Notes: generated by a model not told the origin, from the letters alone. Counted from the stretch's first letter, positions 1,513 through 25,792 are shown. The stretch: 64,000 bases of DNA from Candidatus Nanohalarchaeota archaeon (GCA_017610385.1 JAFCCC010000003.1:1-64000); one strand, 5' to 3'. Numbers and translations: made by a program.

Positions 1513-2328
1513 TTATAAATCATCTAAAGGACTTTGAATATTTTTTAATTTGCTGTTTGCAACATGAGTATAAATTTGGGTTGTTTGTAATCTTGAATGA
1601 CCCAACAAAGTTTGTATATATCTTATGTTTATTCCTTTTTCCAATAAATGGGTTGCGAAACTGTGTCTTAATGTGTGACAACTTACCTTCTTTTTAATGT
1701 TTGCTTTTTTTGCAGCATATTCAAATATTTTTTGAACAGCTTTTATAGAATATTTGTTATTTCTTCCTAAAAATAAATATTTTTGATGCTGTTCAAGCGC
1801 AATATAATTTCTAAGGTCTGGTTTTAGTTTTTCCGGAAGCATAACATACCTTTGTTTATTTCCCTTTCCTAATATTTTTACTACATTTCTTTCAAAATCT
1901 ATATTATTTACTTCTAGATTTACAAGTTCTGAAACCCTTAAACCCAAACCATAGAGACATTTTAATACTAATTTGTGTTTCGTGTTATTTGCAGAATTTA
2001 TTATCTTTTTTACTTCTTCTTTTGAAAGTACGGTTGGAAGTTTATTTTCCCGTTTTGGTCGTTTTATATTTTTACAAATATCTTTTTTTAAGACGTTCCC
2101 GAAAAAGAATTTTAGTGAACTTATGGCCAAATTTGCAGTGATATTGGTATAATGTTTTTTTATAATTAAATACCGAAGATATTTTTTAATATCTCTTTCT
2201 TGAATTTGTGGTATTTCTTTTTTGATAAATTTTAAGAAATCTTTTACAAAATAACTATAAGATTTTTTTGTTTTTTTGCTAAGGCCTCTACAATCCAATT
2301 CGAGTTCCAGTTTCTCAAGTTCGTCCAT
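1513..2328 (-). CDS. Xer-family tyrosine recombinase/integrase (XerA/XerD-like), putative cassette-array integrase
   Basis: SAM-like N-domain; catalytic residues in GLRVSE, GKGNK, HTLRHSFATHLLE, LLGH and TTQIYTHV; likely start is MDELEK at 2328; no IntI-specific insertion. Confidence 0.93.
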   Translation of the reverse strand: MDELEKLELELDCRGLSKKTKKSYSYFVKDFLKFIKKEIPQIQERDIKKYLRYLIIKKHYTNITANLAISSLKFFFGNVLKKDICKNIKRPKRENKLPTVLSKEEVKKIINSANNTKHKLVLKCLYGLGLRVSELVNLEVNNIDFERNVVKILGKGNKQRYVMLPEKLKPDLRNYIALEQHQKYLFLGRNNKYSIKAVQKIFEYAAKKANIKKKVSCHTLRHSFATHLLEKGINIRYIQTLLGHSRLQTTQIYTHVANSKLKNIQSPLDDL

Positions 2329-2358
2329 ACATACATTTTTAATTGATTTATATATAAA

Positions 2359-2386
2359 AATGTGCATATAAGTTGTTATGTCTAAT
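2359..2386 (+). repeat. Recombinase-proximal dif-like site (attI-equivalent), 6-bp spacer
   Basis: AATGTGCATAT-AAGTTG-TTATGTCTAAT; resembles E. coli dif GGTGCGCATAA-TGTATA-TTATGTTAAAT. Confidence 0.75.
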
Positions 2387-2399
2387 TTTCTCGGGTGCC

Positions 2400-3044
2400 T
2401 TATAGCTTTTCCATAAAGAAATAGTTCCCAATATGTTCTTTTTTGCCTGCAGTCATGGTAATCAATTTGGCTTCAATTATACGAAAATGCGACTCAAATA
2501 ATTGTTTCATTTCTTCAAATGAAGAATAATATAATTTTGTTCCAGCAGGCATTTTTGCACCTTCAGGAATTATTCTTAAATCTTTACCTTTCGCTCCGAA
2601 ATCAGGATTTTGATTATTGAAACAAATTGATAGATATTTTCCTTTTTCATTCAAAATCCTTTTAATATTCTCTAAATATTTGTTTCTTTGCTCAGGTGGT
2701 ATGTGGTGCAAAATTGCCCATTCCAATACAAAATCAAATTTATTATTTATTTCATCTAAATCAGCAACATCAAGAGACATAAATTTGATTTTTACATTAT
2801 GTTTCGCCGCATTTCCTTTTGCTAGTTTTATTGCATTTTCTGAGATGTCTATCCCTGTTACATCAAAACCTTTTGAAGCCAAATAAATAGCATAGAATCC
2901 TTCGCCACATCCAACATCGAGAACTTTACATGGTTTAATTTTTTCACTCTCAATTAGTTTTACTAATTCTTTTGGTGGCTCGGATTCTGTCCAGACTGCT
3001 CCTTCTTCATATATTTCTTCAAACATTTCTTTATCATTACTCAT
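2400..3044 (-). CDS. Class I SAM-dependent methyltransferase (cassette 1)
   Basis: VLDVGCGEG motif I, GIDIS, FDFVLE; TehB/TPMT-like. Confidence 0.9.
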   Translation of the reverse strand: MSNDKEMFEEIYEEGAVWTESEPPKELVKLIESEKIKPCKVLDVGCGEGFYAIYLASKGFDVTGIDISENAIKLAKGNAAKHNVKIKFMSLDVADLDEINNKFDFVLEWAILHHIPPEQRNKYLENIKRILNEKGKYLSICFNNQNPDFGAKGKDLRIIPEGAKMPAGTKLYYSSFEEMKQLFESHFRIIEAKLITMTAGKKEHIGNYFFMEKL

Positions 3045-3152
3045 AATTTAGTTAATTGTTCCATATTATATAAAATTAGTGATTGACGGCACCCGAGAAA
3101 ACTCTGCGGTTTTTTGCTACGCAAAAAATCCCCAAATTCTGACTTCGTCAGA

Positions 3153-3182
3153 ACTTCAGATAATCGCGATGTTAGTTGTAAT
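3153..3182 (+). repeat. Cassette core site 1
   Basis: ACTTCAGATAA-TCGCGATG-TTAGTTGTAAT. Confidence 0.8.
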
Positions 3183-3192
3183 TTTTGGGCAA

Positions 3193-3555
3193 TCAAATAT
3201 AGACTTCGATTTTTTGTTTAGAATATTCTTTCTTCAAAAAATCTAGTTTATCTTTATCTAGAACTTTTTTCCTTTTCATATCAAATAGCAATATGTTTAT
3301 AAAATCGTCAAGAAACGGTTCGGCAAATGCTATCTGAAATTGTTCACTATTTTCCAAAATTAATTCTTTTATAATATCAATAAAATTTTTTGGTTGTTCA
3401 ACCAGATGAACAATTTCAGGCAAAGCTCCTAATATTTGCTTTTCAAGCTCATCCATTAACTTTTTATCCGCATTTGCCATATCAATACGTTCTTGCAGTG
3501 TTGATCGCTCTACATATAGACCTACAACCTTCTTGACGATTTCTTTTGAACCCAT
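3193..3555 (-). CDS. Hypothetical protein (cassette 2)
   Basis: 120-aa ORF exactly filling the space between a 13-bp inverted repeat pair; upstream TATA-like box. Confidence 0.75.
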   Translation of the reverse strand: MGSKEIVKKVVGLYVERSTLQERIDMANADKKLMDELEKQILGALPEIVHLVEQPKNFIDIIKELILENSEQFQIAFAEPFLDDFINILLFDMKRKKVLDKDKLDFLKKEYSKQKIEVYI

Positions 3556-3772
3556 ATTATAATGTTAATTTTAAAGTTCTTATATATCTGTCGATTGCCC
3601 AAAAACTCTTCGGGATTTTTTGCTTCGCAAAAATCGTTGCACTATCCCTCGGTCTTTTCTATGAAAAGACGCAACTAACAGGAATTTAACGGTTCCGAAA
3701 CCTTGCAGGTTTCTACACCCAAATTTGATTTTCCAGCTCTGTTCCGCCTTCGGCTCCACGAGGGAAAATCAA

Positions 3773-3802
3773 ACTTCGCTTAATCCTGATGTTATACGAC
3801 AT
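3773..3802 (+). repeat. Cassette core site 2
   Basis: ACTTCGCTTAA-TCCTGATG-TTATACGACAT. Confidence 0.8.
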
Positions 3803-3850
3803 TCGCTCGCAGGCACAAAATTATTAAATGATTTAAGTTAACTAATTTTT

Positions 3851-4369
3851 ATGGATGATAAAACTAGAAAAAAGATTGAAGAATATGCAAAATCAATGAG
3901 ATGGACACCTAAAGATTTTTATTGGAAACATGCATTTATGGTTAGAGAATTCGCTCTAATGATTCAAAAAAGAGTCGGCGGAGATAAAGATATTGTTGAA
4001 GTTTCAGCACTTTTACATGATATTGGAAAATCAAAATTGCTCGGTCCTAAACACGAGGAAATTAGCGCAAAATTAGCAAAGGAATTTCTTGAACAAGTAG
4101 GATTTGATATAAATAAAATCAAGAAAATTGTCGAGTGTATAGAGTATAAAAATTTTAAGTCTATTGAAGCAAGAATTTTGCGCTCCGCCGACTCTATGAG
4201 TCTACTCAGGGACAAGGAAGGTCAAAATTGGTATTTTAAGACTATCTTAAAGAATAATAATGAGCGAATTCTCAAAGAGCTAAAAAAATCTTATTCTGAA
4301 ATTGAGTTTGATTTTGCAAAGAAGTTTGTTGAAGAAAATTACAAAAAATTAGTTAAAAAATATGAATAG
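3851..4369 (+). CDS. HD-domain phosphohydrolase (cassette 3)
   Basis: H...ALLHDIGK...H...D (RSADS) HD-family motifs. Confidence 0.88.
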   Translation: MDDKTRKKIEEYAKSMRWTPKDFYWKHAFMVREFALMIQKRVGGDKDIVEVSALLHDIGKSKLLGPKHEEISAKLAKEFLEQVGFDINKIKKIVECIEYKNFKSIEARILRSADSMSLLRDKEGQNWYFKTILKNNNERILKELKKSYSEIEFDFAKKFVEENYKKLVKKYE

Positions 4370-4415
4370 AGTGCCTGCTCGCGGACGCTGCGCTTAAAAT
4401 TCTTTCTGAATTTTA

Positions 4416-4445
4416 CACTCGTATATCCCTAACGTTAGACGTAAT
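4416..4445 (+). repeat. Cassette core site 3
   Basis: CACTCGTATAT-CCCTAACG-TTAGACGTAAT. Confidence 0.7.
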
Positions 4446-4502
4446 CGTAAGAGATGCCTACAAGAAAGAAAGATTTATTAATGCCCCAATTTTACTAAAT
4501 TT

Positions 4503-4985
4503 ATGGAGAAAAAAACACTTTTAGATTTTATAGCAAGGGCACACAGACATACTTATGCCGCACCAAAAGAAGTCAGAAAACAACATAGGTGTGAGGTGCC
4601 CATTCAAGAAGGTCATAAAGATTATGAATTTGTAGAAGGAGATTTAAGATATCACGATTCCTATGCAGGAAGCCAGTGGGCACCTGGAAGAGAAGTTGTT
4701 TTCTTTCAAGGAAATCCTATTTGGTGTATGGCATATCAAGGACAGCATAATTCAAAATATAATGACGCTTTTTTCCACGAACAAGCATTTCCATTTTTGA
4801 AAAAAGCTTTAATGAATTTTGATGACAGCATGCCTTTTAGAGGTCCTAAAGAATTCTCAGATGGTGCTTTCAAATATACTTTTGAAATGGAAGGAAATTA
4901 TGATTATTTCAAAGGGCAAGAGAGAATTCTTTACAAAGGAGAAAGTGTTTTTTTCCAAGATGTTATGGGTTCATTAATAACATAG
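4503..4985 (+). CDS. DUF5680-like protein (cassette 4)
   Basis: YHDSYAG...GREVVF....PIWCMAY.G and PFRGP..F..G.F.Y pattern recalled for DUF5680. Confidence 0.7.
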   Translation: MEKKTLLDFIARAHRHTYAAPKEVRKQHRCEVPIQEGHKDYEFVEGDLRYHDSYAGSQWAPGREVVFFQGNPIWCMAYQGQHNSKYNDAFFHEQAFPFLKKALMNFDDSMPFRGPKEFSDGAFKYTFEMEGNYDYFKGQERILYKGESVFFQDVMGSLIT

Positions 4986-5135
4986 AACGACATCTCTTAC
5001 GACTTCTTCGGAGTTTTTTCAAAACTCCTCGACCACGCCTTGCAGGCTCTCCTTCGGATCGGGGGCAATTAACAGCAATTAAGAGGAAAATCCCTTGCAG
5101 GAATTTTCCCAAATTTGCTCCACTCCGTTACGCAA

Positions 5136-5165
5136 ACTTCTTATAATCATGATGTTATACGATAT
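5136..5165 (+). repeat. Cassette core site 4
   Basis: ACTTCTTATAA-TCATGATG-TTATACGATAT. Confidence 0.8.
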
Positions 5166-5216
5166 TTGTAATTGTGCATAGCAAATTTTATAAAATTAAT
5201 AAATAACTATATTTTT

Positions 5217-5477
5217 GTGAGACATGAAAAAAAAGTTTGGCCAGAATATTTTCAAAAAATCCTTGATGATAAAAAAACTTATGAGCTTCGTCTTGCTGAT
5301 TGGGAATGCAACGAAGGAGATATTTTAGTTTTGCGGGAATGGAATCCGGAAACTAAAGAATACACTGGAAGAGAAATTGAAAAGAAAGTTACTTATGTTG
5401 GCAAAACTAAAAATTTTACATTCTGGCCAAAAGAAGATGTTGAAAAATATGGTTATCAAATCATAGCTTTCAAGTAG
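5217..5477 (+). CDS. ASCH/PUA-fold (DUF3850-like) protein (cassette 5)
   Basis: HEKKVWPEYFQKILDDKKTYELR...GDILVLREW...YTGR; probable GTG start at 5217. Confidence 0.85.
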   Translation: MRHEKKVWPEYFQKILDDKKTYELRLADWECNEGDILVLREWNPETKEYTGREIEKKVTYVGKTKNFTFWPKEDVEKYGYQIIAFK

Positions 5478-5520
5478 AACGGCACATTACAAACGCTAAA
5501 GAGGACGCTACGCTCCAGAA

Positions 5521-5550
5521 ACTTCTCATAAGCCTGGTGTTATACGCAAT
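5521..5550 (+). repeat. Cassette core site 5
   Basis: ACTTCTCATAA-GCCTGGTG-TTATACGCAAT. Confidence 0.8.
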
Positions 5551-5566
5551 TTTTCGATGGGCGGAT

Positions 5567-5896
5567 CTAGTGTGGGAACAAAATCTCTGCAAGAATCCCT
5601 AGTAAAACAAAAAAACCTAAGATTGTAGATATAAATATCAAAACAGAATAATCTTTCTTTTTTGTAATGCCAATAATACCGCAAAAAAAAGCAGCAATAC
5701 CAGAAAAGAACCCGACTAACATCGGCAAGGCTATTCCAGGTCTAACTAGAATATCCTGTGGTATTGTTCTCCCAGCTGGAATAGATTCATAAAGATCTAC
5801 AAAGGATATGCCGATATAAATAAATATTGGCGTAAAAACAAGTAATGCAAATGATAATTTACCTAAATTACTCTTTGGTATAAACTTTATTTTCAT
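5567..5896 (-). CDS. Small 3-TM membrane protein (cassette 6)
   Basis: Three hydrophobic segments; enclosed by a 14-bp inverted repeat pair. Confidence 0.8.
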   Translation of the reverse strand: MKIKFIPKSNLGKLSFALLVFTPIFIYIGISFVDLYESIPAGRTIPQDILVRPGIALPMLVGFFSGIAAFFCGIIGITKKKDYSVLIFISTILGFFVLLGILAEILFPH

Positions 5897-6063
5897 ATTC
5901 TAATAAGAAATATTAATGAGACATATTATTAAGTAAATAACTGTTTGTTTTGATACTATCCCTCGTCCATCGAAAAACTTCTTCCGCTTCGCTCCAGAAA
6001 CTTCTCTTCCAGATTTATTCATTTACCCTTTTAGATTTAATCAAACAAAGTAATAGTATACTT

Positions 6064-6495
6064 ATGTTGGCTAGAATTAAAAATTTCCTGAGTTTCCTGA
6101 ATGGCCTTTTGAATTTTATTCTTTATGGGCGTTATGACTGTGTAGCCGCGATTATACTTACAAAAGATAATTGTATTTGGCTTGTTAAGTTTGCAAAGGA
6201 ATATGGATTGCCTGGAGGAATCGTAAAACATGATGAATCTTTAGAAGAAGCCATTAAACGAGAAGTAAAAGAAGAAACTGGAATTATTGCAAACTCTGTA
6301 AAGTTATTTTATTCTGAAGAACGTTCTGGCATTTCTAAAACGTTCAATGTATATGAAATTACAAATTATGAATTAACCTTAAAATCTTCTCTAGAAGGTA
6401 AACCCGTGAAAGTAAATTTAGTTCATCTCCCTAAACGGATGAGAGGAAGTCATGAAAAAATAATTAAACTATGGTTAAATCAGGAAAAATCTTAA
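6064..6495 (+). CDS. NUDIX hydrolase
   Basis: GLPGGIVKHDESLEEAIKREVKEETG Nudix box; likely start at ATG 6064. Confidence 0.85.
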   Translation: MLARIKNFLSFLNGLLNFILYGRYDCVAAIILTKDNCIWLVKFAKEYGLPGGIVKHDESLEEAIKREVKEETGIIANSVKLFYSEERSGISKTFNVYEITNYELTLKSSLEGKPVKVNLVHLPKRMRGSHEKIIKLWLNQEKS

Positions 6496-22716: not shown

Positions 22717-23283
22717 TCAGATTAATTGATTTCCTATGGGTTTTTGAGGAACTTCTCTATGTTTTTGTAATGTAGTAGGTTTAAAGAAATCTCCTCGTCT
22801 TTGAGTTGCATAAAGTCGTCTTAGTCTTTTATCTAGTTTTTCTAAACCAGAAGCCATATTTGTATTAGATTCTTTTATGCCATCTACCATTTTTTCAATG
22901 TGATCTGAAACCTCTGTTAATTTATCTGCAATTGGATTAATTATATTTGTTCCTAGCTCTGAAGTAACTTCTGATTCTAAAGACGTTTCAGACGCTTCTT
23001 TTAATAGATCCATAAATGAATTAAGATTATCTACAACAGAATCCATTTTTGCAGTCAGGTTTTCCACATTATTTCTTAATTGAGTGTTGCTTTCGACCAT
23101 ATCATTAACAATCTTCTGATTGGATTTCATTATGTCTAAAATATCTCTTATAAGAGATTCATCTCTAGAAAGAGAATTACCACTTTCCAATTTTGTTAAC
23201 CGATTTTCTATGCGTCTTAAGGGACCTAAAGGAACTACTTCGTATTCCTCTGAATCTAAATTGAGCTCCACTTCTTTTGCCAT
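22717..23283 (-). CDS. Coiled-coil protein heading the pilus operon
   Basis: EYEVVPLGPLRRIE.R motif followed by heptad-rich sequence. Confidence 0.7.
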   Translation of the reverse strand: MAKEVELNLDSEEYEVVPLGPLRRIENRLTKLESGNSLSRDESLIRDILDIMKSNQKIVNDMVESNTQLRNNVENLTAKMDSVVDNLNSFMDLLKEASETSLESEVTSELGTNIINPIADKLTEVSDHIEKMVDGIKESNTNMASGLEKLDKRLRRLYATQRRGDFFKPTTLQKHREVPQKPIGNQLI

Positions 23284-23412
23284 AAATATCTTTCTCCGAA
23301 TAGAGTTATGTAAAAATCTTGGTTAGCGTGGTATAAATATCTTTGCTCCAAACTTCGAGAATTTAGTTACCATAGCGCGTTGTAAATAACCCAATAGCCT
23401 TTGTTTAATGGG

Positions 23413-24084
23413 TTACTTGATTATTTTCTCGACATGGCTCCAAATCTCTGAAAAAATTTCTTCTTTGCTTTTTAGAGTCCCATTTGCATTCATACATGCA
23501 ATAACGACCCAATTTGCTCTTTCTTGTGCAATCTCTAAATAATTTTCATTTGCATTTATTTGAAAATTTAATGATTCCTCATGTATATCTCTTTTTAATC
23601 CTTTAAGATATGCTCTTAGATCTTTGTGAGCATTAAGTTCAAATGCTGTTGAAGGAGATACATTTAGAACAAAAACCAGATCTGCTTGAGGCAATCTTTC
23701 TTCCACCTTTTCAATCCAAGACACAGCAACTTTTCTTTCTTGACCAAAATACTCTAATGGTTGAAAACCCATATTTGATTGAGTAAATCTATTAGAAACT
23801 ACGATTTTTCCTTCTGCAATGGCTTCTTGATATTCATTTTTGAACTGATAACGGTCTATTGCATAAAGTAAACATCTTATTTCAAATGGAATTTCATCTT
23901 TTTTCCCAAAATCTCCTCTCAAATAGGCTGCAACCAATTTACCGAATTTTGTTTCATAAGATGGAAAATCCGCATAAATTACACTTTTATTTAATTCTTG
24001 CAGTTTTGTTATCAGCTTCTTGGCTTGAACTGTTTTACCAGATGCGTCAATTCCTTCAATAACGATAAATGTTCCCTTTCCCAA
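23413..24084 (-). CDS. tmk: Thymidylate kinase
   Basis: FIVIEGIDASGKT, LLYAIDR, NRF..S. Confidence 0.9.
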   Translation of the reverse strand: MGKGTFIVIEGIDASGKTVQAKKLITKLQELNKSVIYADFPSYETKFGKLVAAYLRGDFGKKDEIPFEIRCLLYAIDRYQFKNEYQEAIAEGKIVVSNRFTQSNMGFQPLEYFGQERKVAVSWIEKVEERLPQADLVFVLNVSPSTAFELNAHKDLRAYLKGLKRDIHEESLNFQINANENYLEIAQERANWVVIACMNANGTLKSKEEIFSEIWSHVEKIIK

Positions 24085-24148
24085 CTCGAAATCCCTCTAT
24101 TTTCTTACTTGTTTTAAAAGAATAAAAAGTTAAAGTCCATTGCAGACT

Positions 24149-25792
24149 TTAATATTCTGGAGGCATTCCGCCAGGACCCATATTGGGTGGCATTCCTCCA
24201 GCACCACGAGAACCAGAAGCTGCGATGATATCATCTATCCTCAATATTAATTCTGACGCTTCTGCTGAACTTTGGATTGCCTGTACTTTAATTTGCAATG
24301 GTTCAACAACCCCTTGGGCATATAAGTCTTCCGCCTTTCCTGTAAACACATTTACACCAGCCCAAAGCATTCCTGATCCATGTTTAGCTCTTAAATCCAC
24401 CAATAGATCAATAGGATCTAAACCAGCGTTCTCTGCTAAAGTTCTTGGAATAATTTCTAAAGCGTCTGCAAATGCATTAATTGCTAGTTGTTCTCTTCCT
24501 CCAATTGAATCTGCAAAAGATCTTAATCTACGTGACAATTCAATTTCAACTGCCCCGCCACCCCCAACAATCTTTCCTATTCTTAATGAAGAAACAACTC
24601 CACCAATTGCATCTTCCATTGCACGTTTCACTTCATCAACAACATGTTCTGTACTTCCTCTAACTAAGATAGTTACTGCTTTTGCATTTTTGCAACCCTT
24701 TACAAAAATCATATTATCTCCAGAAACTTTTTTCTGCTCAACAACGCCCGCGTATCCCAAGTCCGTTGGATTAATTGGCTCAGATAAAGATGTTAAAATA
24801 GAACCGCCAGTTGCTCTTGACAATCTTTCCATATCCGATTTTTTAACCCTTCTAACAGCCAAAACGTTATGTTTAGACAGGTAGTGCTGCGCTAGTTCAT
24901 CAATTCCTTTTTGACATAATACCACGTTTGCTCCAGAGGAAACAATTTTCCCTGTTAATTCTTTCAGAGTTTTTTCTTCTTGATCTAAAAATTCTTGTAA
25001 TCTAGATGGATCTGTAATCTGAATTTGTGTGTCTGTTTCAGTATCTTTAATTTCTATAGGAACATTTAATAGTGCTACTTTGGCGTCTTTAATCAAATTT
25101 GGCATTCCCGGATGCACTTTTTCTTTATCTATAACAACACCATCAATTAATTCTGTATTTTCTGTTGATTCACCTTGTTTTTTCTCTAATTTTATATTGT
25201 CCATATCAAATTCATAACCATTTTCTGTTTGTTCTGAAACTTGTTTTACAGCCTTAACTGCAATCTGTGCCAAGTGAGTTTTGGACGTCTCTGCATTTTT
25301 TCCAGTCATAGCTGTAATCGCAACATTAACTAAGGTTTGATCATCATTAAACGTTACTTTTGTACTAATTTCTTCCAGAATCTGTAAAGTTTTTTCTTTT
25401 GCTAGTCTATATCCGGAAGCGATAACTGTTGGATGTATCTTTTGTTCTAACAATCCTTCTGCTTTTTTTAGTAATTCTCCCGCAATAATAACAACTGTAG
25501 TTGTTCCATCACCAACTTCTTCATCTTGTGTTTTTGCAATATTTACCATCATTTTAGCTGCAGGATGTTCGACTTCCATTTCTTCTAATATGGTTACCCC
25601 GTCATTTGTTACAACAACATCACCAATTGAATCCACCATCATTTTGTCCATTCCTCTTGGACCTAGTGTGGTTCTAATTGCATCTGCAATTGCTTTACAG
25701 GCTGAAATATTATTTATTTGTGCATCTTGACCGGTTTGCCGTAATGCATCTTTGTCTAAAATAAAAATAGGTTGTCCACCAACTTGTGCCAT
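24149..25792 (-). CDS. ths: Thermosome (group II chaperonin) subunit
   Basis: [19 protein letters not shown]-rich C-terminal tail. Confidence 0.97.

Follow-up and report, generated by a model that had tools for sequence, protein, structure and literature searches.

Why do the hairpins at the ends of gene cassettes carry loops of one type on one strand, whichever way the cassette genes face? This question is raised by a 64,000-nt stretch of DNA from a Candidatus Nanohalarchaeota archaeon (GCA_017610385.1, JAFCCC010000003.1:1-64000; the whole stretch is called the window below), in which a tyrosine recombinase gene (1513-2367, minus strand) adjoins an integron-type array of six gene cassettes (2376-6010, plus strand). 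A preliminary description had drawn attention to at least eleven hairpins between the genes and the core sites of this array, whose 3-nt loops read TNC on the top strand and hence GNA on the bottom strand, and had proposed that the substrate of recombination is a structured single strand of DNA rather than an RNA terminator. The hairpins, their polarity, the covariation of the stems, the attC architecture of the sites and the position of the cassette boundaries at the core are all observed here. The reading that appears most likely to us, and that we favour with clear reservations, is that the bottom strand of the cassette-end sites would fold with the help of its GNA caps.

The array is carried by a small, AT-rich, DPANN-like archaeal genome (788 kb in 18 contigs, 32% G+C, 93.5% complete) that encodes an archaeal Pus10. 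At most 0.08 of the sampled words of the window were present in any listed sequencing run, and no RNA run was among those listed.

Loop types and strand polarity of the hairpins

The eleven hairpins are all in place with TNC loops on the top strand. Eight of them have a perfect stem of 3-8 bp and a 3-nt loop: 3110-3128 (TAC) and 3137-3153 (TTC) at the end of cassette 1; 3617-3633 (TTC) before the attC site of cassette 2, and 3697-3713 (TGC) and 3746-3754 (TTC, the inner part of a hairpin spanning 3724-3773) inside that site; and 5010-5028 (TTC), 5037-5047 (TGC) and 5050-5058 (TTC) before the attC site of cassette 4. The hairpin at 5085-5109, inside the latter site, is imperfect, with an inner CCT-TGC-AGG (5093-5101), a C/A mismatch and seven outer pairs. 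Those at 5507-5513 (GCTACGC, cassette 5) and 5986-5992 (GCTTCGC, cassette 6) have stems of 2 bp, and their bottom strand fits GCGNAGC. A further TNC mini-hairpin, GCTGCGC, lies at 4387-4393 in cassette 3, so that the exact bottom-strand heptamer occurs five times, as GCGTAGC (3116-3122, 5507-5513), GCGAAGC (3622-3628, 5986-5992) and GCGCAGC (4387-4393). One stable exception had been missed, at 3652-3670 before the attC site of cassette 2, with an 8-bp stem and the loop TAT; its relative in a metagenome has the loop TGC. Hairpins with TNC loops are present at all six cassette ends and three of the six genes are reversed, which bears out the view that loop polarity is the same whichever way the gene faces.

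Such loops are far more frequent than base composition would provide. The 803 nt between genes and junctions were compared with 2000 dinucleotide shuffles, the loops CNT and ANG, which are TNC and GNA read backwards, serving as controls for base composition. With stems of at least 3 bp, this cassette-end DNA holds 10 TNC triloops, 11 others and no GNA, CNT or ANG, and none of the shuffles (mean 1.11) reached 10 TNC loops. With stems of at least 5 bp, five TNC loops stand against a shuffle mean of 0.08, again reached by none of the 2000. Over the whole 64 kb, 18 triloops have stems of at least 7 bp: six lie in the array, five of them TNC, and among the twelve outside it one is TNC. The top strand of the cassette ends has 190 C for 127 G.

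Contigs from metagenomes were then scanned with the L'-R' motif, which gave at least 80 loci, and a subset of 45 attC sites was defined by an AAC that precedes the complement of the L' pentamer by 1-4 nt and lies at most 300 nt upstream, a selection blind to loops. The span in which triloops were counted begins 300 nt upstream and stops where L' starts. The TNC excess expected in homologous arrays proved strong: at stems of at least 4 bp there are 75 TNC, 5 GNA, 2 CNT, 1 ANG and 69 other loops, and at stems of at least 5 bp 44 TNC, 1 GNA, no CNT or ANG and 24 others. As the scan motif came from the window, the set samples a single attC family, and kinship among the 45 sites inflates the raw counts, so that distinct hairpin sequences are the safer measure; these number 46 TNC, 5 GNA, 2 CNT, 1 ANG and 54 others, the last mostly with A/T-only stems. 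The 35 loci with no detected left half, a mixture of missed sites and chance hits in genes, give 17 TNC, 2 GNA, 2 CNT, 1 ANG and 51 others at stems of at least 4 bp.

The composition of these loops was recorded in a count split by gene frame, which covers a slightly different span and contains 74 TNC loops: 30 TTC, 31 TGC, 12 TAC and 1 TCC. Of these, 26 fall within the stretch from R'' to L' and the other 48 within the 200 nt that precede R''. Their closing pairs are C:G in 42 cases, as in the d(GNA) type of triloop closed by C:G on one strand, T:A in 31 and A:T in one. Among mini-hairpins with two inner G/C pairs, 72 loops are of the form T..C, 6 G..A, 22 C..T and 3 A..G, part of the C..T class being the neighbouring register of GCTTCGC-type sequences. 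The stems vary (TTTGC/GCAAA, TTGGC/GCCAA, TTCGC/GCGAA) and the loops stay TTC, TGC or TAC; differing stems with fixed loop ends point to selection on structure and loop identity, and not to common descent alone.

Polarity was followed in the same 45 loci by taking the longest open frame within 900 nt upstream of R'' as the gene, although for six loci, which are cut short, this frame has fewer than 50 aa. At stems of at least 4 bp, the 27 loci with a plus frame have 40 TNC and 3 GNA loops, and the 18 loci with a minus frame 34 TNC and 3 GNA. Loop polarity is thus tied to the R''-to-R' polarity of the attC site and not to the direction of the gene. Since R'' lies 5' and GTTRRRY 3', the plus strand corresponds to the top strand of integrons, and the GNA loops are on the bottom strand, the one that classical integrons recombine (PMC5027507, PMC2727003).

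The stems are asymmetric as well. With the DNA parameters of ViennaRNA, the predicted fold is more stable on the bottom strand at four of five cassette ends of the window and at 40 of the 45 metagenomic sites (mean difference -1.7 kcal/mol); these parameters assign the same loop energy to GNA and TNC, and the asymmetry is therefore additional to any effect of the loops. Single stem mismatches that are G-T wobbles on one strand number 18 for the bottom and 5 for the top, a weak difference with some near-duplicate entries.

These patterns suggest the following course of events. Whenever the DNA is single-stranded or extruding, its bottom strand would fold faster and more stably through the sheared G-A pair of the G-N-A triloops, and this stable fold would favour the strand that integron recombinases cut. 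The GNA caps may also keep the site folded against single-strand binding proteins (SSB), after which the recombinase would exchange strands at G|TT of the R' core. Selection would act on bottom-strand folding, and the enzyme would use a folded single strand. Published work supports the ingredients: among the 64 GCNNNGC heptamers, only the GNA type forms a mini-hairpin, and GCGNAGC melts at 70-76 C according to a 2026 review (PMC13037366). A 5'-GAA-3' tip on the bottom strand is conserved in most attC sites of mobile integrons according to Nivina (2016, PMC5027507), who argues that it must contribute to strand selectivity, and replacing GAA by TTC severely lowered the binding of IntI1 to attCaadA1 in vitro (Sundstrom's group, as cited in PMC2727003). 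Of the readings considered, only bottom-strand folding would account for a loop asymmetry that duplex DNA gives no sense to, that goes with the polarity of the site and that falls on the strand known to react in the parent family.

Architecture of the sites and cassette boundaries

The top strand of the 45 sites reads, in order, R'', one unpaired A, L'', a first hairpin, the linker CCAAATT, a second hairpin that abuts AACTTC, L', GAT and R'. At the cassette ends the consensus of R' is GTTAKAC, and R'' ends in TAAC. Long sites have an extra module of small hairpins between the gene and R''; each such site bears three to five capped hairpins, and many of these fall outside the R''-R' interval. 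Structure is kept rather than sequence, as an R''-L'' partner was identified at 45 of the at least 80 loci, with 18 distinct L' stems that each have a matching L'' and 17 distinct R'' heptamers ending in AAC. In 30 of the 45 sites the L duplex extends at least 9 bp from the seed without a break. As to extrahelical bases, six sites have one extra A on the R''-L'' arm, none has an extra base on the other arm, and 30 have none in the L stem.

In the window itself, cassette 2 fits the R''-L''...L'-R' plan clearly (attC 3673-3797, R'' AACTAAC 3673-3679, R' GTTATAC 3791-3797), apparently with two extrahelical bases as judged by eye. Cassette 4 (attC 5067-5160, with hairpins 5085-5109 and 5114-5136) fits less well, and cassettes 1, 3 and 5 have no clear left half. 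The unpaired linker CCCAAATT between the two tip hairpins is conserved across the family, being found at 3131-3138, 3718-3725 and 5108-5115, and in most of the metagenomic loci L117-L196; it could be a recognition element.

The left half of a site matches the cassette that it closes. In cassette 2, R'' is exactly complementary to the start of its own cassette (G+TTAGTT) and not to the downstream core. Similarly, a Woesearchaeota contig (L074) encodes a homologous recombinase followed by two cassettes with long end regions, in which GCATAAC and GTATAAC are, in both cases, exact complements of the cassette's own start (GTTATGC and GTTATAC), and each precedes a stretch that is the complement of the bases immediately ahead of the core. 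R'' is therefore complementary to its own cassette start in all three informative cases; the R''-like heptamer of cassette 4, AATTAAC, shares nothing but TAAC with either core and was left out as uninformative. An earlier model, in which the site was a bare dif-like ATAAnC...GTTA dyad with five bases between and the repeats flanking the genes played the part of the R box, was dropped in view of the canonical R''-L'' of L074 and of the metagenomic sites.

Boundaries were also located with contigs of four metagenome runs (X1-X4) aligned to 2300-6100 at 85% likeness. Relatives of single cassettes occur in other contexts, with alignments starting at 3792 (X3), 3791 (X4), 4435 (X1), 4433 (X4), 5154 (X1) and 3169 (X2), and other contigs cover a site up to 3174 or 5157 and then run into unrelated sequence. 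The depth of aligned contigs peaks over the two long attC regions. Such contigs stem from other organisms and are thus evidence on boundaries, not on events in this genome. Together with the match of R'' to its own cassette start, they point indirectly to a crossover at G|TT of the R' core, with TTRRRY probably travelling with the next cassette.

The recombinase and competing explanations

The recombinase has 284 aa, the length of XerA, with Pfam matches to Phage_integrase and to a SAM-like N-terminal domain. It adjoins the array, is transcribed away from it and has an attI-type junction at its 5' side, as expected of an integron. It passes the XerA_Arch model (NCBIfam NF040815, whose name reads 'site-specific tyrosine recombinase/integron integrase') with a score of 271.7 for a cut-off of 220, and falls below the integron integrase model TIGR02249 (235.8 for a cut-off of 265). 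Two other tyrosine recombinases of the source genome are far below both the XerA and the IntI cut-offs. The protein is colinear from end to end with XerA of P. abyssi (4a8e), and aligns in two pieces with VchIntIA (2a3v), having 13 residues where VchIntIA has 57. Its nearest relatives, 40-48% identical, come from a range of DPANN archaea and from Magasanikbacteria or other Patescibacteria. In relatives, all seven core hits of the attC family lie upstream of the recombinase, on the antisense strand. Queried with the protein, rather than with a model of its family, none of the other 69 genomes of the order had a hit at E<=1e-30. The gene is hence not the housekeeping Xer of the lineage, which would be conserved across it and served by one dif site per chromosome.

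Two homologues on Patescibacteria-labelled contigs (L067 and L048) have insertions of 27 and 11 aa at the site of the additional domain of IntI. A 484-aa tyrosine recombinase is encoded on contig C14 of the source genome (about 22900-24400, L011), far below the XerA and IntI cut-offs and with its catalytic-domain match split by about 90 aa; motif and profile searches detected no attC core of the family of the window on that contig.

Several observations weigh against a folded bottom strand as the substrate. The additional domain specific to IntI, around patch III, is absent from the recombinase, and five homologues linked to arrays (L072, L074, L075, L088 and L104; 259-265 aa) have no insertion either. 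This insertion is called necessary for integron-mediated recombination by Ghaly (2022, PMC9668308), and was tied to the specialised single-strand pathway by Escudero (2016, PMC4792948). Among the 53 homologue loci that have over 400 nt of upstream sequence, the same attC family was identified at only five. The L'-spacer-R' part of the site, with its 7-nt spacer, also reads as a complete double-stranded core site of the Xer type. As to the loops, Bouvier (2009, PMC2727003) reports that, with single strands delivered, swapping the tip of the Vibrio cholerae repeat (VCR) for GAA or TTC shifted recombination by no more than 1.6-fold upwards or 2.4-fold downwards, and concludes that strand selectivity at this site does not depend on the tip. 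The stability of d(GNA) hairpins depends strongly on the closing pair (PMC3201870), and the classic data on GCGNAGC do not cover the 31 of 74 TNC loops that are closed by T:A. Finally, a naive count of hairpins in the 6 kb on either side of 72 recombinase homologues gave 29 TNC and 8 GNA upstream for 26 TNC and 11 GNA downstream. The count does not discriminate and was replaced; it shows a background excess of TNC, and only the counts anchored on attC sites, with their CNT and ANG controls, carry the claim.

The alternative that survives best, unlikely in our judgement, is that a Xer-type enzyme would act on ordinary double-stranded sites made of L', a 7-bp spacer and R', as at dif sites or in integrative mobile elements exploiting Xer (IMEX), the hairpins serving cruciform extrusion, spacing or another factor. 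The side on which the protein falls of the two model cut-offs and its lack of the IntI insertion speak for this view, as do the 30 of 45 L stems with no extrahelical base. Likewise, both arms of the core resemble one motif of about 12-13 nt that forms perfect palindromes beside the homologues L043, L046 and L050, a likeness that counts against single-strand use. A site used as duplex only, however, has no need of an R''-L'' that covaries with L'-R', yet 18 distinct stems are matched, nor of an R'' that tracks the start of its own cassette; loop asymmetry is meaningless in duplex DNA; and the gene, unmatched in the rest of the order, is not a housekeeping Xer.

The three homologues just named, close ones, have a perfect palindrome next to the gene instead of an array, which for L043 is of the form 13-4-13 and lies about 300 nt upstream of the recombinase gene. 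The palindrome arm resembles both the L' and the R' arm of the window sites. These palindromes look like dif-type sites, and may hint at a link between the right half of attC and a Xer site.

A less probable alternative, which we hold to be quite improbable, is that the GNA hairpins are signals on single-stranded DNA, for priming or for keeping SSB off, by which an excised or half-exchanged cassette strand would be copied, and not elements recognised by the recombinase. To our knowledge, no archaeal primase uses such signals. In favour of this view, more TNC hairpins lie in the 200 nt upstream of R'' than inside the site (48 versus 26). The hairpins would resemble those of complementary-strand origins in ssDNA phages and plasmids: hairpins of the GNA type occur at origins of the phage G4 type and at the ssiA site in a plasmid oriV, with the hairpin region left unbound by SSB (PMC13037366), and integron insertion is resolved by replication (PMC3458562). 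The word 'integron' is absent from the text of the review that describes these hairpins (PMC13037366).

We give equally little credence to a role of the hairpins at the RNA level, where they would terminate, process or stabilise a transcript that reads through the array. A single promoter at the attI end would fix their polarity, and some TTC loops stand in CTTCGG, which can be read as a UUCG tetraloop of RNA (3746-3754 and 5050-5058). Most loops, however, are not UUCG, as TGC and TAC make up 43 of the 74, and GCTTCGC and ACTTCGT allow the triloop register only. No T-runs follow the hairpins, and terminator-like sites between 2300 and 6100 number 2 for 2.1 expected, one of them overlapping a listed hairpin on the minus strand. 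The hairpin module lies 5' of the gene in reversed-gene cassettes and 3' in the others, which, together with the missing T-runs, argues against terminators; no Rfam family matched at E<=1. The opposition drawn in the preliminary description between folded bottom-strand attC sites and RNA terminators therefore holds as regards attC-type sites, a polarity tied to them and hairpins unlike terminators, whereas the use of single-stranded DNA by the recombinase is proposed from these patterns.

That the loop bias was merely inherited from one ancestral repeat is very improbable indeed: identical hairpins do recur in distant samples (GGAGTTTTTTCAAAACTCC in the window and L104, GAAACCTTGCAGGTTTC in the window and L074), but the 46 distinct TNC sequences have many stems and constant loop ends, compared with 5 GNA, 2 CNT and 1 ANG, and covariation of stems with conservation of loops is a signature of selection.

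Layout of the array and comparison with known systems

The array opens at an attI-like junction (2361-2381, plus strand), where the first GTTRRRY-type core, GTTATGT (2375-2381), lies at the 5' side of the recombinase gene. Cassette 1 (2376-3171) contains a methyltransferase gene on the minus strand (2400-3044) flanked by an inverted repeat (2386-2399/3088-3101), and is followed by the core GTTAGTT (3171-3177). Cassette 2 (3172-3791) holds an uncharacterised gene, also on the minus strand (3193-3555), with the inverted repeat 3182-3194/3593-3605; inside its attC site the linker starts at 3718. Cassette 3 (3792-4434) encodes an HD-domain protein on the plus strand (3851-4369; inverted repeat 3809-3816/4371-4378) and has, besides its mini-hairpin, a hairpin with a 5-nt loop at 4395-4413; its core is GTTAGAC (4434-4440). 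Cassette 4 (4435-5154) carries a DUF5680 gene on the plus strand (4503-4985), the inverted repeat 4445-4456/4991-5002 and the core GTTATAC (5154-5160). Cassette 5 (5155-5539) has a DUF3850/ASCH gene on the plus strand that ends at 5477, an inverted repeat with a 1-nt bulge (5165-5177/5483-5494) and the core GTTATAC (5539-5545). Cassette 6 (5540-6010) encodes an uncharacterised protein on the minus strand (5567-5896; inverted repeat 5550-5560/5967-5977), and ends in a degenerate last site, with AACTTC at 5999 and no R' core after it.

Each gene of the window array is thus bracketed by an inverted repeat specific to its cassette, the left arm of which begins some 11 nt past the G of the preceding core, and the right arm of which ends in AA and then C just past the gene. 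For 23 two-core cassettes (from the window, from L074 and L075 and from metagenome loci), the longest exact complement that a cassette's start has in its own end region measures 12 nt in the median (range 7-17), compared with 8 nt (range 6-12) in a control against the start of the next cassette, available for 22 of the 23; the arm is at offset 11 in 14 of the 23. A relative of cassette 5 in run X1 (window 5476-5496) lacks the 1-nt deletion in the right arm, giving a perfect 13-bp repeat, and continues with an end region like that of cassette 3. In an excised circle such a repeat would lengthen the attC stem, and in the array it would bring the flanking sites together. We know of no description of a cassette-bracketing repeat of this kind.

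A search of the source genome with a profile of the window cores (nhmmer) returned six cores at E<=6e-4, five on contig C3 and one on C11, and the exact 23-nt core motif has one further match, on contig C13. A second array of the same attC family, with no recombinase, is found on contig C11 (about 120300-122200; L005 and L013) beside tRNA-Leu(GAG). One of its cores is an exact match to the window motif, and its cassettes encode a protein of the dCMP/cytidine deaminase type, an HhH-GPD glycosylase, and a DUF2683 protein accompanied by a small neighbour. In the 70 genomes of the order, the search for the exact core motif gave, outside the source genome, single mismatched sites and no arrays.

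Strand choice by integron recombinases is usually explained by extrahelical bases read by a domain specific to IntI. At the present locus this domain is absent and most sites have no extrahelical bases, but the loops show an extreme asymmetry between the strands, and this asymmetry is conserved. Should strand choice or folding be set by the loops, they would represent a simple and testable second route to strand selectivity; this would offer a view of how integrons may have arisen out of Xer-type systems, and rules for designing structure-specific recombination sites. Should the loops set neither, the data would still amount to a clean extension of the GAA-tip rule to archaeal cassettes and to those of bacteria of the candidate phyla radiation (CPR). 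More tentatively, and with the balance of our judgement on the doubtful side, the arrays may belong to a separate integron lineage of DPANN archaea and CPR bacteria, in which a recombinase of Xer length with no insertion would work on attC sites mostly devoid of extrahelical bases, strand identity and folding being encoded instead by sets of GNA-capped hairpins, and in which the gene-bracketing repeats would pair flanking sites or extend the attC stem.

With the d(GCGNAGC)/d(GNA) mini-hairpins studied by Hirao, Yoshizawa and others (PMC13037366), the array shares its five exact bottom-strand heptamers. Many of the present loops, in contrast, cap longer AT-rich stems or are closed by T:A, which places them outside the published melting data. 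Our literature search, which did not extend to subscription journals, found no work linking attC loops to d(GNA) mini-hairpins, and a search on attC triloops found nothing on integron sites.

Xer/dif systems and Xer-exploiting elements (archaeal XerA; 4a8e, 5hxy) resemble the locus in protein length, domain order, the XerA_Arch match and the two inverted arms separated by a short spacer. They differ from it in that the window has many tandem sites with covarying inverted copies that bound single-gene cassettes, and in that its recombinase gene has no counterpart in the other 69 genomes at the threshold given above.

Archaeal integrons, for which Ghaly (2022, PMC9668308) was the sole relevant paper found on attC in DPANN, share with the window attC cassette arrays in metagenome-derived archaea, including DPANN, and an attI-like site beside the recombinase. 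The IntIs described there carry the additional domain, and the cassette genes generally share one orientation; the present recombinase lacks the insertion, and genes are reversed in three of six window cassettes (strands -, -, +, +, +, - in order) and in 18 of 45 metagenomic loci, so that the co-orientation with the array seen in integrons is lacking. The supplementary lists of that paper may already contain this attC family.

The closest comparison is with the GAA-tip attC sites of mobile integrons (PMC5027507, PMC2727003). Both have the order R''-L''-tip-L'-R', a GTTRRRY-type R' and a purine loop on the bottom strand; that strand is rich in purines and, by prediction, the more stable one. 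The GAA-tip rule being already published, the idea of hairpins acting on one strand extends a known rule and is not a new principle. The present sites nevertheless differ from those of mobile integrons in having several capped hairpins instead of one tip, with loops GAA, GCA and GTA; a two-hairpin tip joined by CCAAATT, with a hairpin module upstream of R''; and an unpaired spacer of 1 nt instead of 3 nt, with no extrahelical base in 30 of 45 L stems. What is new here is the generalisation of the loops to GAA, GCA and GTA, the presence of several capped hairpins per site, and a recombinase of XerA length that lacks the IntI insertion. To these are added L stems that mostly have no extrahelical base and cassette-specific inverted repeats that bracket the genes; a further difference is that about 40% of cassette genes are reversed.

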